From a virus: 5,176 bases of DNA. Position numbers and translations under genes: made by a program. Below, in pieces: positions 1 to 5,176 of the stretch. The notes below the pieces were generated by a model, which did no database searches, had not been told where the DNA came from, and saw only the letters and a program-made list of their open reading frames with translations. Numbering within the stretch: the first letter of the stretch is position 1; each line of letters starts with the position of its first letter. The stretch covers positions 1 through 5,176 of IMG/VR virus record IMGVR_UViG_3300045988_003406; one strand, 5' to 3'.

Positions 1-127
1 CTGGTATAGCTCGGCAATGGTATGAAGATCATCCAGGTATCTATGAGTATGACAGTATAAATTTGTCTACCAGTAAAGGCGGTATGAAGATACGTCCCCC
101 TAAGTATTTTGATAAGCTGTTTGATTT
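1..127. repeat. Terminal redundancy copy 1 (identical to 5050..5176). It marks the arbitrary break point of a circular 5049-nt genome
   Basis: Seen directly: the first 127 bases of the window recur exactly as its last 127 bases. The duplicated segment lies inside an uninterrupted reading frame (the rep C-terminus), as expected for an assembly overlap rather than a biological repeat. Confidence 0.9.
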
Positions 128-293
128 GGAGCAGCCTGGTGCTTTGGATGAGATCAAGGAGAAGCGTAAGCACTTTGCTGAACAGGCTAAGAAAGGTATG
201 ATGGCTCAAACTAATTTAACCTATGAGCAGCTGCTTAAGGTCAAGGAGGAGAGTTTTCATAATCGTATCAAAACATTGAAGCGTGAATTGTGA
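1..293 (+). CDS. VP4: C-terminal segment of the replication initiator protein (VP4-like Rep). It continues the ORF that starts at 4260 and ends at TGA 291..293
   Basis: The frame of 63..293 is the same frame as the open read-through from 4260 to the window end once the 5049-nt circular offset is applied (63 corresponds to 5112). Track ORF 63..293 is therefore only the tail of rep, and its TTG 'start' is internal. Full rep = 4260..5049 joined to 1..293 = 1083 nt, about 360 aa. Confidence 0.85.
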   Translation, partial: GIARQWYEDHPGIYEYDSINLSTSKGGMKIRPPKYFDKLFDLEQPGALDEIKEKRKHFAEQAKKGMMAQTNLTYEQLLKVKEESFHNRIKTLKREL

Positions 294-307
294 AAGGAGT
301 TTTTGTT

Positions 308-421
308 ATGGCAAAGCGTCAGCCCCGAAGTCAGGATAGGCAGGTGTTTCGGCATACTGCTATCAATGCAAAGAGGATTAATGTAAATCCTAAAGTTTAT
401 CGTGGAGGTATACGGATGTGA
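308..421 (+). CDS. Small, highly basic 37-aa protein (MAKRQPRSQDRQVFRHTAINAKRINVNPKVYRGGIRM). It is a candidate DNA-binding/packaging protein analogous to phiX174 J and gokushovirus ORF8
   Basis: ATG at 308 follows AAGGAG (294..299) with an 8-nt spacer. The product has 10 Arg/Lys in 37 aa and no acidic bias. It sits immediately after the rep stop, and its TGA (419..421) overlaps the next GTG start (418). It is not in the ORF track, presumably because it is below the length cutoff. Small basic proteins at this position are typical of gokushoviruses, and the C-terminal RGG-x-R motif is recalled from ORF8-like proteins, though that is memory and not verified here. Confidence 0.5.
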   Translation: MAKRQPRSQDRQVFRHTAINAKRINVNPKVYRGGIRM

Positions 422-639
422 GAGACATAGTTGAGGAAAATGCGATTAGGACATTTCGTGGTTTCTTAGAGCGTCAAGGTTTCATTGACATCTCTATTCG
501 TCGTGGTCGTGAGTTTGGTAGGTTTGTTTGTACTGCTTATGACCCTTTCGACTGTAAGGTCTTTTCCCGTGAGTATGATGTTTCGGAGATGCAGTGTATT
601 ACCCATGCTAACAAGATTTTTTGGAGGTATTTCAGATGA
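418..639 (+). CDS. Hypothetical 73-aa protein of unknown function
   Basis: GTG 418 is preceded by GGAGGT (404..409) with an 8-nt spacer. Third codon positions are strongly T-biased, as in the confident genes. Its stop TGA (637..639) overlaps the ATG of the next gene (ATGA). The alternative-frame ORF 485..670 lacks this codon bias. Confidence 0.5.
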   Translation: MRDIVEENAIRTFRGFLERQGFIDISIRRGREFGRFVCTAYDPFDCKVFSREYDVSEMQCITHANKIFWRYFR

Positions 640-899
640 ATTTTGGAGTTTATGCTATTCGCGATGTTAAGTCTGGTTTTATGTCTCCGACCGTCGAGGT
701 CAACAATGAGGTAGCTATTCGTAATTTTGCCTATGCTGTGCTGCATAATGAGATGTTTGATTCGTTTGCGTCTGATTACTCGTTTTATCGGATTGGTGAT
801 TTTGACACAGATACTGGTATCCTTAAGCCTTATGCTCCCCCTGTGTTTTTGCTCGAGGCTAGGGCTACTGCCCGCAAGGAGGTGAAAGGTGATGAGTAA
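636..899 (+). CDS. Conserved small microvirus protein, 87 aa, VP5-like/non-structural, function unknown
   Basis: ATG 636 is preceded by GGAGGT (623..628) with a 7-nt spacer. The track ORF begins at an upstream in-frame TTG at 621, but the SD supports 636. The product MNFGVYAIRD...FYRIGDFDTDTGIL carries the 'YAIRD' and 'F/LYRIG-FD--TG-L' motifs, which I recognise from a small protein family recurrent in gut and gokushovirus genomes. That recognition is from memory, not from a search. The stop TAA 897..899 overlaps the VP3 start (ATGAGTAA). Confidence 0.6.
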   Translation: MNFGVYAIRDVKSGFMSPTVEVNNEVAIRNFAYAVLHNEMFDSFASDYSFYRIGDFDTDTGILKPYAPPVFLLEARATARKEVKGDE

Positions 900-1392
900 T
901 TTTGAGACAAGGTATCGACCCCAGCGACATTTTTATAGTGGTCATGGTGATCCTGTTAAGGTGCTTTATAGTCCTGAGTTCGATAAGAATGGTGTAATGT
1001 CTCTTAAAAAGTCTGGCCGTGAGAATCTGTATGACTATATCCAGTCTCATCGTGATAGTGTGGATATTCACAAAATCCTTCAGCGTTTCGAAGAAGGTGA
1101 CGTGGCTGCCCTTTCTAAGGTCCAAGGTCAGTTTGGTGATTTCTCCCAGTTCCCCAAGACTTATGCCGAGATGCTTAATCAGGTGATCGAGGGCGAGAAT
1201 GCTTTTAATAATCTTCCACTTGAAATTCGTGAGAAGTTTGGCCATAGTTTCCAGCAGTGGCTTGCTACTGCCGGTTCTGATGAGTGGTCCGAAAAAATGG
1301 GCTTTCGTCCTACGCCTGCAGGCGTGGACAACCCGTCCCCCGAAGGGGCGCAAGCCCCTTCCTTTGAACAACAGAAAGAAGGTGTTGAATAA
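892..1392 (+). CDS. VP3: Internal scaffolding protein (gokushovirus VP3-like), 166 aa
   Basis: AAGGAGGTG at 877..885 sits 6 nt upstream of ATG 892; the track start GTG 889 is in frame 1 codon upstream. The product contains 'ENLYDYIQSHRDSVDIHKILQRFEEGD' and 'KTYAEMLNQVIEGENAFNNLPLEIREKF', which match the conserved core of gokushovirus VP3 scaffolding proteins (pattern ...IQS-KDS-DI--IL-R...GD... known from Chlamydia/Bdellovibrio microvirus VP3). The stop TAA (1390..1392) overlaps the VP1 ATG (TAATG). Confidence 0.8.
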   Translation: MSNFETRYRPQRHFYSGHGDPVKVLYSPEFDKNGVMSLKKSGRENLYDYIQSHRDSVDIHKILQRFEEGDVAALSKVQGQFGDFSQFPKTYAEMLNQVIEGENAFNNLPLEIREKFGHSFQQWLATAGSDEWSEKMGFRPTPAGVDNPSPEGAQAPSFEQQKEGVE

Positions 1393-3062
1393 TGTCCAGG
1401 AATGCGAATACACGCTTTGCACTGAATCCTACTAATCTTGATATTTCTCGGTCTAAATTTAACCGGAATCATTCGCTTAAGACTTCGTTTAACGTTGGTG
1501 ACGTAGTGCCGTTTTATGTTGATGAGGTATTGCCAGGTGATACTTTCCAGCTTAAAACGTCTCTTGTTGCTCGTATGCAGACGCTTATTACTCCTATGAT
1601 GGATAATATTTATCTGGATACGTATTTTTTCTTCGTTCCTAACCGTCTCACCTGGAATCATTGGAAGGAGTTTAATGGTGAAAATACTCAAAGCGCTTGG
1701 TACCCTTCTGTTGAGTATTCGGTCCCTCAGCTCACAGCACCGGCTACTTCTGGTTGGTCTATCGGTACTCTTGCTGATTATTTTGGTATTCCTACCGGAA
1801 TCTCTAATCTCAGTGTTAACGCGCTTCCTTTCCGAGCTTATGCCCTTATCATGAATGAGTGGTTCAGAGATGAAAATTTGTCTGATCCTCTCTCTGTGCC
1901 TGTCGATGATGCTACTGTCGTTGGTGTTAATACTGGCAATTACATTACTGACGTAGCTAAAGGTGGTCTTCCGTTTAAGGCTGCTAAGTATCACGACTAT
2001 TTCACTAGTTGTTTGCCAGCGCCGCAGAAAGGTCCGGATGTTACTATTCCGGTTGCCGATATTGGTAATGCTCCTGTTGTGCCTTTGTCTGCTAATGTTC
2101 CTACTTCTTTGTTTACTGGTCAGGCTTATAATGCTGTAAGACTTGATGGTTCTTCTTTTTCTGGTTCTGGTACTTATGGTATTGGATTTAATTTGGCTGA
2201 TGGTTCTCAAGTAGATTTTGGTGGTTCTACTGCAGGTAATTCAACTAATAGGACAGTGATTTCAAATTTGTGGGCTGTTCAGTCTGGTGGTGCTGCCGCT
2301 GCTACTATCAATCAGCTTCGTATGGCTTTTCAAATCCAGAAACTTTACGAGCGTGACGCCCGTGGTGGTACTCGGTATATCGAGATTCTAAAATCTCACT
2401 TTGGCGTTACGAGCCCAGACGCGCGTCTACAGCGGCCTGAATACCTCGGAGGTAATCGGATACCCATTAACATCAATCAGGTCGTACAGAGCTCTGCAAC
2501 GGCTACTGAGGGCACTCCGCTTGGTGATACCGCTGCTTTCTCTCTCACTACAGATACGCATGGCGACTTTATCAAGTCTTTTGTGGAGCATGGCTTCATC
2601 ATTGGCGTGATGGTTGCTCGCTATGACCATACCTACCAGCAAGGTCTTGAGCGCTTTTGGTCTCGCAAGGACCGCTTCGATTATTATTGGCCTGTTTTCG
2701 CTAATATCGGTGAGCAGGCAGTTCTTAACAAGGAGATTTATGCTCAAGGCAATGAAAAGGACGATGAGGTATTTGGTTATCAGGAAGCTTGGGCTGATTA
2801 TCGTTATAAGCCTTCTCGTGTTACTGGTGAAATGCGTTCCTCTGCGCCTACTTCGCTTGATGTTTGGCATTTGGCTGATGAGTACACTCAGTTACCTACT
2901 TTGTCTGATTCTTGGATTCGCGAGGATAAATCCAATGTTGACCGTGTTCTGGCTGTGACTTCTGCTGTGTCCAATCAGATGTTTGCTGATATCTATGTAC
3001 AGTGTGAGGCTACTCGGCCTATGCCTGTGTACTCTATTCCTGGTCTTATTGATCATCACTGA
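1392..3062 (+). CDS. VP1: Major capsid protein (Microviridae F/VP1 family, gokushovirus-type), 556 aa
   Basis: It is the longest ORF. The N-terminal region 'RSKFNRNHSLKTSFNVGDVVPFYVDEVLPGDTF...ITPMMDNIYLDTYFFFVPNRLTWNHW' is the hallmark of microvirus major capsid proteins. The more C-terminal 'INQLRMAFQIQKLYERDARGGTRYIEILKSHFGV...PEYLGG' is also hallmark. A Gly/Ser-rich variable insertion (about nt 2013..2306) sits where gokushovirus VP1 carries its large surface loop. Confidence 0.95.
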   Translation: MSRNANTRFALNPTNLDISRSKFNRNHSLKTSFNVGDVVPFYVDEVLPGDTFQLKTSLVARMQTLITPMMDNIYLDTYFFFVPNRLTWNHWKEFNGENTQSAWYPSVEYSVPQLTAPATSGWSIGTLADYFGIPTGISNLSVNALPFRAYALIMNEWFRDENLSDPLSVPVDDATVVGVNTGNYITDVAKGGLPFKAAKYHDYFTSCLPAPQKGPDVTIPVADIGNAPVVPLSANVPTSLFTGQAYNAVRLDGSSFSGSGTYGIGFNLADGSQVDFGGSTAGNSTNRTVISNLWAVQSGGAAAATINQLRMAFQIQKLYERDARGGTRYIEILKSHFGVTSPDARLQRPEYLGGNRIPININQVVQSSATATEGTPLGDTAAFSLTTDTHGDFIKSFVEHGFIIGVMVARYDHTYQQGLERFWSRKDRFDYYWPVFANIGEQAVLNKEIYAQGNEKDDEVFGYQEAWADYRYKPSRVTGEMRSSAPTSLDVWHLADEYTQLPTLSDSWIREDKSNVDRVLAVTSAVSNQMFADIYVQCEATRPMPVYSIPGLIDHH

Positions 3063-3098
3063 TGGATCAATGTAATTTCGAATTTTTCTTTATAGGAC

Positions 3099-3117
3099 GC
3101 GCGCCCCTGCGCTTTTT
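3099..3117 (+). terminator. Candidate intrinsic terminator downstream of VP1: a short GC-only hairpin (GCGC-loop-GCGC) followed by TTTTT
   Basis: Seen in sequence: gcgcgcccctgcgc followed by ttttt, 37 nt after the VP1 stop. The stem is only 4-5 bp, so it is weak. A nested GACG...CGTC pairing (3096..3123) is also possible. Confidence 0.3.
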
Positions 3118-3137
3118 GACGTCTTGTAGAGGATGCA

Positions 3138-3161
3138 AAGGAGGGGGCAGGGGCCCTCCTT
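3138..3161 (+). promoter_or_regulatory. Stable hairpin: 8-bp stem AAGGAGGG/CCCTCCTT with an 8-nt G-rich loop, in the VP1-VP2 intergenic region
   Basis: Seen in sequence: aaggaggg ggcagggg ccctcctt. One arm is a perfect Shine-Dalgarno-like AAGGAGG that is not followed by a start codon at proper spacing. The real VP2 SD (AAGGAG 3173..3178) is downstream. Possible roles are RNA stability/attenuator element, decoy SD, or a ssDNA hairpin for complementary-strand synthesis priming. Confidence 0.45.
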
Positions 3162-3184
3162 GGTCGTTATGAAAGGAGATATTT

Positions 3185-4158
3185 ATGGCTGTTAATTCTG
3201 CTCGTACTGGAGCTATTGTAGACGGCTCTTCGAGGTTTCTTGCTAATGCTGGTAATGCAATGAAGCTTAATTCTATTGATTCCCGGCTTGGTACTGTGTA
3301 TAATACATTAAGTTCAATTACTGGTGCAAATACAGCGGCTTCGGCAAAAGAGGCTTCCCAGTTGCGTGATTGGCAGTCGGAGCAAGCTCGCCTGGCGAGA
3401 GAGTTTAATTCCCAGGAAGCTGCGAAAAACCGTGATTGGCAAAAAATGATGAGCGATACGGCTCATCAAAGGGAGGTTGCAGACCTTGTTAAAGCTGGCT
3501 TAATCCTGTTCTTTCCGTTACTGGTGGTAACGGTGCTGCTGTTTCTTCCGGTGCCACGGCTAGCACATCAGCTCCTTCAGGTGCTATGGGTCATATTGAT
3601 AGTAGTGGTGCTTCTGCTTTTGTGGCTTTTCTTGGTGGTCTACTTAACCAGATGACTCAATTGGAGACGGCTCGTGTTAGTGCAGAGAGTAATCAAGCGA
3701 TTGCGGACAAATATACAGCGATGTCTAAGTACACAGCGGATTTACAGGCTCAAACTCAACTTAATACTGCTACGATTAGTGCTATGGCTTCGCGCTATGC
3801 AGCGGACGCTCATCTTTCTGGTGCCTATGCTTCCGCGGCTGCTACTAAGGCCTCGGCTGCTATTCATGCTGCTGCGCAAAAGTACGGTTCGGATGTGGCT
3901 GCGATGACGCAGAAGGAGATCGCTCAGTTTAATGCTGATGTTAATAAGGATCTTCAGGAAGCTGGATTTAAACAGCAGTTTGATATTAAGTCTGCTTTTC
4001 CGGAAAATGGTTGGCAGTATGCCAATTCTTTAGGTGATTGGTTTTCTGGTAATTCTTCTGGTCGTGGTTTTACTGGTACTTTGGATTCTATTTTTTCGAT
4101 GTTTAATGGAGGTAGTTCTTCGAAGGGTTCGTTCCGTGCTGGTGGTTCTGGTCGTTAA
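3185..4158 (+). CDS. VP2: Minor capsid/DNA pilot protein (VP2-like), about 324 aa, interrupted by a 1-nt frameshift at about 3500..3504 (track ORFs 3185..3655 and 3586..4158)
   Basis: AAGGAG at 3173..3178 sits 6 nt before ATG 3185. The first frame encodes '...DWQKMMSDTAHQREVADLVKAGL' and then degenerates into a poly-hydrophobic out-of-frame tail. The -1-shifted frame, which re-reads A3502, is open from 3493. It continues 'NPVLSVTGGNGAAVSSGAT...' through a Gly/Ala/Ser-rich region to a Gly-rich C-terminus. The fused 'NTA-QR-VADLKAAGLNP' is the conserved VP2 motif of gokushoviruses. The shift falls at the A-run in 'ggcttaatcct' (expected 'ttaaatcct'). Confidence 0.8.
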
Positions 4159-4162
4159 CGAC
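4151..4162. other. Perfect 12-bp palindrome GTCGTTAACGAC spanning the VP2 stop codon
   Basis: Seen in sequence; it is its own reverse complement and is centred on GTTAAC. Function unknown; it could be a protein-binding site or a minor hairpin. Confidence 0.5.
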
Positions 4163-4180
4163 TGAGGCTGGAAGGCGTTT

Positions 4181-4221
4181 CAGTGGGAACCAATACATTC
4201 TTGATATATTGGTTCCCACTG
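4181..4221 (+). other. Perfect 15-bp inverted repeat (CAGTGGGAACCAATA / TATTGGTTCCCACTG) with an 11-nt loop 'cattcttgata'. Candidate rolling-circle (+)-strand origin or other cis-acting replication/packaging hairpin
   Basis: Seen in sequence: 4181..4195 is the exact reverse complement of 4207..4221. The element lies in the 101-nt VP2-rep intergenic region, 39 nt upstream of the rep GTG start. Its loop/3'-arm junction reads CTTGATAT (4200..4207), identical to the 8-nt core of the phiX174 gene-A nick site (CAACTTG^ATATTAATAAC, quoted from memory). Confidence 0.55.
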
Positions 4222-4259
4222 ACACCACCAGATTTCCGAGTACGGAAAGAGGTGAAAAA

Positions 4260-5176
4260 GTGAGTTGTTTCAACCCTTTGAAGGCATTTGAGATTGGTAC
4301 TTTGCCTTCTGGAAAGAAAGATTTGAAAATAGTACCTTATGGTGTGCATCATTTGGAGATGGATTCGCGTGGAAAGATTATCCCGGTTGGGACTTCGGAT
4401 GTGTCTGCCTATCGTGTGAAGACCTTTACCAAGTGGTCGGAAATTCCTTGTGGTTACTGTGAAGGTTGTCGTATTGCCCGTTCTCGTGAATGGGCTAATC
4501 GTTGCATGATGGAGTTGGAGTATCATAAATCGGCCTATTTTGTTACTTTGACTTATGATGATGACCATGTGCCTGTAAGTTATTATTCTGACCCTGATAC
4601 TGGCGAGGCTATGAAGTCTTTGACACTTCGGAAACGTGACTTCCAGCTTTTTATGAAACGGCTTCGAAAGGCTTTCCCGGATTGTCATATTCGTTATTAT
4701 GCTTGTGGTGAGTATGGCTCTCAGACGTTGCGGCCTCACTATCATGCAATTATTTATGGTCTCGAGCTTGATGACCTAGAGGTCTATCGTGATGTCCGGC
4801 GTGGTGATGTCGGATATCAGTATTTTACATCTAAGTCTTTACAAGATGTTTGGTCTGTGATAGCTTTAGAGCAAGCAAAGTATAACTCCCCTTGCAGGAT
4901 ACCCCTTGGATATGTCTTGGTTGGTAATGTTACCTGGGAGACTTGTGCCTATACTGCCAGGTATGTGCTCAAGAAGCATTATGGTGCCGAATCTCAAGTG
5001 TATGAGGAGTTTAATGTCGAACCGGAATTTGTGCTTATGTCCCGTCGGCCTGGTATAGCTCGGCAATGGTATGAAGATCATCCAGGTATCTATGAGTATG
5101 ACAGTATAAATTTGTCTACCAGTAAAGGCGGTATGAAGATACGTCCCCCTAAGTATTTTGATAAGCTGTTTGATTT
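4260..5176 (+). CDS. VP4: Replication initiator protein (VP4-like, HUH superfamily rolling-circle Rep). N-terminal 306 codons in this window; the ORF runs off the 3' end and completes at 293 via the circular junction
   Basis: GTG 4260 is preceded by AGAGGTG (4247..4253) with a 6-nt spacer. The N-terminus M-S-C-F-N-P matches the conserved 'M-x-C-x-x-P' start of gokushovirus VP4. A Cys cluster 'PCGYCEGCR...WANRC' follows. Motif 1 is 'FVTLTYDD'. The HUH motif is 'RPHYHAIIYG'. The catalytic two-tyrosine motif 'CAYTARYVLKK' is comparable to phiX A 'YVAKYVNKK'. There is no stop from 4260 to 5176. The ORF track misses this gene because it has no in-window stop and a GTG start. Confidence 0.9.
   Translation, partial: MSCFNPLKAFEIGTLPSGKKDLKIVPYGVHHLEMDSRGKIIPVGTSDVSAYRVKTFTKWSEIPCGYCEGCRIARSREWANRCMMELEYHKSAYFVTLTYDDDHVPVSYYSDPDTGEAMKSLTLRKRDFQLFMKRLRKAFPDCHIRYYACGEYGSQTLRPHYHAIIYGLELDDLEVYRDVRRGDVGYQYFTSKSLQDVWSVIALEQAKYNSPCRIPLGYVLVGNVTWETCAYTARYVLKKHYGAESQVYEEFNVEPEFVLMSRRPGIARQWYEDHPGIYEYDSINLSTSKGGMKIRPPKYFDKLFD
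5050..5176. repeat. Terminal redundancy copy 2 (identical to 1..127)
   Basis: Exact 127-nt identity with the window start. Confidence 0.9.

Follow-up and report, generated by a model that had tools for sequence, protein, structure and literature searches.

The gene for the DNA pilot protein VP2 is split between two reading frames in a gut gokushovirus genome that reads GG where its near-identical relatives read GGG. Genuine loss of a G from the sequenced DNA, in a defective genome or in an amplification product, is favoured over error as the source of this state, with a probability of a little under 60%. A single 324-aa ORF, present in a twin genome assembled from the neighbouring run SRR3740099, represents the functional gene of this virus. 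Only one sequencing run shows the deletion, and no relative has it. The two-G state was probably the majority state in the reads and the split gene is presumably non-functional.

The genome and its interrupted pilot-protein gene

The window, the whole stretch of DNA that was analysed, is 5,176 nt long (IMG/VR record IMGVR_UViG_3300045988_003406, positions 1 to 5,176). Because its ends carry a perfect direct repeat of 127 nt (1-127 = 5050-5176), it represents a complete circular genome of 5049 nt. The virus is a gokushovirus (Gokushovirinae, Microviridae), a small gut phage. All genes lie on one strand, VP2 stands in a VP1-VP2-VP4 context in a circle within the range of ~4.5-6 kb (Table 1) and the gene order agrees with the microvirus order described in PMC9239249. 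In GenBank, the closest records belong to Microviridae of the pig and human gut, at 83% identity in VP1 DNA and 72-73% identity in VP2 protein.

Table 1. Features of the window, with emphasis on the split VP2 gene
Feature	Position	Strand	Detail
VP1 major capsid	1392-3062		Pfam Phage_F, E = 1.5e-172
Shine-Dalgarno-like AAGGAG	3173..3178	+	6 nt upstream of the VP2 start codon; read from the sequence
VP2 (DNA pilot protein)	3185-4158	+	between VP1 and VP4
VP2 5' part, frame A	3185..3498	+	codons 1-104 and first two bases of Gly105
Last frame-B stop upstream of the junction	3490..3492	+	TAA
Lesion	3497..3498	+	GG where all near-identical genomes have GGG (1-nt deletion)
VP2 3' part, frame B	3499..4158	+	Leu106 (CTT) to Arg324, and TAA stop
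Out-of-frame hydrophobic tail of frame A	3503..3655	+	50 codons and TGA stop
ATGA overlap	3652..3655	+	frame-A stop TGA 3653-3655 / frame-B Met codon 3652-3654
VP4 replication protein	GTG 4260 across window end to 293		REP_ORF2-G2P
VP5			Phage_ORF5 match
VP3			Chlamy_scaf match

Identity between the window and a contig from run SRR10682448 (L006) is mosaic, being 99.5% over 2763-5176 (end of VP1, VP2, VP4), 95.4% over 1342-2792 (the bulk of VP1) and 88.7% over 1-1305 (end of VP4, small ORFs, VP5 and VP3). Such a mosaic points to either recombination or a very uneven divergence of these gut microviruses. The VP2-VP4 intergenic region contains a 22-nt inverted repeat (4177-4198 / 4204-4225; core CAGTGGGAACCAATA/TATTGGTTCCCACTG), which is 91% complementary with a 5-nt loop and is also present in L006 and in a second contig, L005; it may act as a terminator or as a hairpin related to replication. 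A G+C-rich perfect 8-bp hairpin (AAGGAGGG...CCCTCCTT; 3138-3145 / 3154-3161) sits between the VP1 and VP2 genes, just upstream of the VP2 ribosome-binding site.

The assignment of the split gene to VP2, made in the original prediction from the letters of the sequence, is borne out by pilot-protein PHROG profiles and by VP2 homologues. On PHROG 5158, a profile of 322 positions, residues 23-106 of frame A match positions 19-102 and the frame-B ORF from Met 3586 matches positions 130-308, while the fused VP2 matches positions 19-297 in one stretch (E = 4.9e-87). As the two pieces cover one profile in order, chance is excluded as an explanation for a VP2 in two pieces. The fused protein also matches seven 'pilot protein for DNA ejection' PHROGs (up to E = 3.9e-21) and, in tblastn, aligns in one piece to its relatives, being 54-73% identical to annotated VP2/pilot proteins of pig and human gut microviruses. 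No Pfam model matched the fused VP2, and a sequence search against solved PDB structures gave chance-level matches only (E ≥ 0.077).

The VP2 motif RDWQ...TAHQREV.DL..AGLNPVLS is present and invariant. All 120 best homologues (302-343 aa) share the residues G105, L106, N107, P108, V109, L110 and S111 without exception, and in every one of them VP2 is a single ORF across the site. Only in the window copy is the single uninterrupted ORF of ~300-340 aa missing. The window copy is a disrupted member of the gokushovirus VP2 pilot-protein family.

The ORF list and the translations agree with the original prediction that the gene is divided between two frames. Frame A runs from ATG 3185 to TGA 3653-3655 (3185..3655; 156 aa) and encodes a VP2-like N-terminus ending ...REVADLVKAGL. 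Frame B, which is -1 relative to frame A, is open from 3493 to TAA 4156-4158 and its translation from 3493 reads SWLNPVLSVTGGNG... (SWLNPVLSVTGGNGAAVSSGATAS...). Frame B is not an independent gene, since ten frame-B stop codons lie between 3193 and 3490; it follows from the last of these that any shift into frame B must come after it.

Past residue ~106, frame A has no profile match. Across 3502-3654, 71% of frame-B third codon positions are T, and these T-rich positions become second positions in the +1 frame, giving Leu, Val, Phe and Ile codons and few stops. It is clear from this that the hydrophobic tail is, as had been proposed, T-rich DNA read out of frame. An overlapping membrane or lysis gene was considered for the same stretch and rejected, as the hydrophobicity is a by-product of third-position composition; such a gene is also excluded by the lack of an ATG in that frame of the intact genome and of any family match.

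The lost base and the site in relatives

The missing base was identified from a twin genome. An exact-protein look-up with the window VP3 led to two Logan contigs from adjacent runs, L005 (SRR3740098_219, 5079 nt) and L007 (SRR3740099_79, 5080 nt). The same look-up with the window VP1 gave no match; the VP1 gene is cut by the contig ends in Logan contigs. L005 is 100% identical to the window, shift included. When whole genomes were aligned after overlap removal and rotation, L007 was identical to the window at all 5049 positions except for one extra G (GCTGGGCTT in L007 vs GCTGGCTT in the window; CTTGTTAAAGCTGGGCTTAATCC vs CTTGTTAAAGCTGGCTTAATCC).

A search of a large protein collection with the fused VP2 returned P0001, a protein of 324 aa in a cluster of 47, which is 100% identical over its full length and whose contig (L006) reads GCT GGG CTT AAT CCT. 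The 5' part of VP2 is identical to that of L007 and P0001. Judged from these alignments, the lost base is a G of the GGG run at 3497-3498 and the true junction is KAG/LNP. The original prediction had put a 1-nt shift at KAGL/NP: the shift does sit inside the invariant AGLNP motif, but the junction lies one codon upstream. It had also proposed repair by an added A at 3501-3502, which gives the same protein (P0001, 100%, 324 aa), although the base lost is G. In JGI/IMG, intact VP2 proteins of the P0001 cluster bear the names 'Tfp pilus assembly major pilin PilA' and 'aldehyde:ferredoxin oxidoreductase', which look like mis-annotations of a microvirus pilot protein.

More distant relatives also have one ORF with ...AGLNPVLSVTGG.., but cannot identify the lost base because their codons differ at the site (GGA TTG AAT in L001 and L002, GGC CTT AAT in L003 and L004). 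The other repairs hinted at by these GenBank relatives (GGA TTG, GGC CTT) were overruled by the twin L007, which reads GGG CTT AAT.

The comparison with the closest genomes that the original prediction had suggested gave a uniform answer, as all carry GGG at the site and an intact single VP2 ORF. Twelve further genomes at least 99.7% identical in VP2 have GGG and one 324-aa ORF; in L006 and L010-L019, VP2 DNA is 99.7-99.8% identical, with GGG and an intact 324-aa ORF. Ten further GGG contigs come from run series SRR10682xxx and SRR27716xxx and from three JGI samples. Exact-pattern scans of the viral_contigs and metagenome_contigs collections gave no match; these collections evidently do not contain these samples, since three JGI contigs obtained by a different route (L011, L016 and L019) carry the GGG pattern, and the empty scans say nothing about the site.

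Two more short VP2 fragments fall into the protein cluster of the 156-aa product; they are from different viruses of the clade and have different private indels. In L008 (SRR31481596) a run of six A has become seven at the equivalent of window 3441-3446, and in L009 (SRR22944325), which also has GGG at the window 3497 site, CCC has become CC near the equivalent of window 3411-3413. These single-base indels truncate the called VP2 to 99 and 87 aa, respectively. Frame disruptions in this clade are sporadic, occur at different homopolymer sites and are each confined to one assembly.

Origin of the two-G state

A true deletion would have begun with an ordinary gokushovirus VP2 gene that lost one G from GGG (GCT GGG CTT AAT, encoding Ala-Gly-Leu-Asn), possibly through slipped-strand mispairing at this short run while the phage genome replicated. 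The resulting VP2-null genome may then have been packaged with VP2 supplied by co-resident wild-type genomes. Alternatively, the deletion may have arisen early in library amplification. In either case the products expected of the GG genome are an N-terminal fragment of 105 residues that runs into a junk hydrophobic tail and, at best, a C-terminal fragment truncated at its N-terminus. That the VP2-null allele was the majority genotype of one sample, as a 'cheater' sustained by an otherwise identical wild type, is a more specific proposal and we consider it unlikely.

The main competitor of a true deletion is an error at the level of reads or consensus, in which the virus has GGG and a base-calling fault or an under-called homopolymer at low coverage produced GG in one run. 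This is less probable than a deletion but a serious contender. Technical error and a defective genome had both been put forward in the original prediction, and both stay plausible. The missing G is the sole difference from the sister run and falls in a homopolymer run, and a depth of no more than 2-3x at the site, or a platform that tends to miscall homopolymers, would make error plausible. A VP2-null majority would, in addition, need complementation or an amplification bottleneck, and the private VP2 homopolymer indels of L008 and L009 fit noise as well as mutation. Frameshift-split genes are also a recognised class of artefact in microvirus metagenome assemblies (PMC9239249), and those who curate microvirus genomes regard such splits as artefacts of assembly and repair them with inserted Ns (Kirchberger, Martinez and Ochman 2022, PMC9239249).

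Several observations nevertheless argue against error at this site. GG was obtained from two assemblers working with different k (127-nt overlap in the window; 30-nt overlap in Logan, k = 31), and their agreement on the deleted state indicates that it is not an assembler artefact. Logan drops 31-mers seen once per run (PMC12424806), so that each junction 31-mer must be backed by at least two reads; the GG path is the one chosen by graph simplification in the Logan contig. A systematic, context-dependent miscall should recur, yet the sister run and 12 other assemblies with the same local sequence give GGG, and a random error would have had to prevail over the correct call at a run just three bases long. 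Between the two runs, 64 of 64 runs of four or more bases are concordant, including 19 of 5-6 bases. The 127-nt overlap presumably points to SPAdes with paired reads of at least 250 nt and hence, on SPAdes defaults, to Illumina sequencing. Indel errors are rare on Illumina. The literature search found no study using SRR3740098 or other SRR3740 runs.

Proposed recoding or a two-piece VP2, and known systems

A different kind of explanation is that the split is functional. The original prediction had offered a genuine -1 ribosomal frameshift as one possibility: slippage by ribosomes somewhere in 3493-3501 would carry them out of frame A into frame B, so that the GG genome still yields full-length VP2. 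The frame-B stop at 3490 and the conserved LNP do enclose a narrow usable stretch, within which slippage would bring back the invariant motif. However, no X_XXY_YYZ heptamer occurs anywhere in frame A (3185 to 3655), and none of the available codons (GCU, GGC, UUA) allows re-pairing after a step of one base back (AGC, UGG, CUU). The 98 nt downstream (3503-3600) fold with an MFE of -26.9 kcal/mol against -24.8 ± 3.0 for shuffled sequences (z = -0.70), and 47 of 200 shuffles fold at least as well. Nor is the two-frame layout conserved, VP2 being a single ORF in 13 near-identical genomes as well as in the 120 homologues, and the sibling L007 differs only by the G that restores the frame. The prediction of a frameshift thus fails on its lack of a heptamer, on the unremarkable fold and on the single ORF of relatives, and programmed frameshifting is extremely improbable. 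Transcriptional slippage was likewise rejected, as the GG tract (GGG in relatives) is far shorter than the ~6-9 or more identical bases needed.

Another conceivable reading is a working two-piece pilot protein, in which the N-terminal fragment acts together with a C-terminal one whose translation re-initiates at the ATGA (3652-3655) or at Met 3586. The stop/start overlap is a layout able to support termination-reinitiation. It is, however, accidental, because its Met is a conserved internal residue of intact VP2, the Met of NQMTQLE, which is also found in L001 and L002. Such a protein would lose residues 106-128 or 106-150, including the invariant LNPVLS..GG.G block. No other genome examined is split here. 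Public gene calls for the split VP2 are 156 aa with 168 or 190 aa, the 168-aa second ORF being listed because of the frame-B ATG in the overlap, and the 156-, 168- and 190-aa products are recorded only for this genome (the 5176-nt contig in JGI/IMG and ENA, and L005). A functional two-piece VP2 is therefore very improbable.

The gene is best annotated as a disrupted VP2, or as a 324-aa ORF by restoring GGG, instead of as two hypothetical proteins, and the split should not be listed as a recoding candidate. Should GG prove to be a true majority allele, the virus would offer a minor natural case of a defective microvirus genome sustained by complementation, mildly relevant to phage population biology.

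Comparison with known systems places the lesion in an ordinary class. It belongs to no recoding class, as none of the defining features that were looked for was found. The -1 frameshift sites of E. coli dnaX and of IS element transposases share with the window only the outcome, two overlapping frames that would give one protein; unlike them, the window has no slippery heptamer, no notable downstream structure and no conserved two-frame layout. Gokushovirinae VP2, of which phiX174 protein H is the functional counterpart, shares with the window copy its position between VP1 and VP4, the pilot PHROGs and the invariant motif; the window copy differs by the 1-nt deletion, the gene being intact in the otherwise identical L007. 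The lesion is a frameshift-disrupted gene in a metagenome-assembled microvirus, which is a known and ordinary class that involves no new mechanism. As in the cases described in PMC9239249, the assembled genome has a core gene that a single-base shift has divided into two ORFs, but here, in contrast to those cases, the missing base can be named from a sibling genome that is identical elsewhere.
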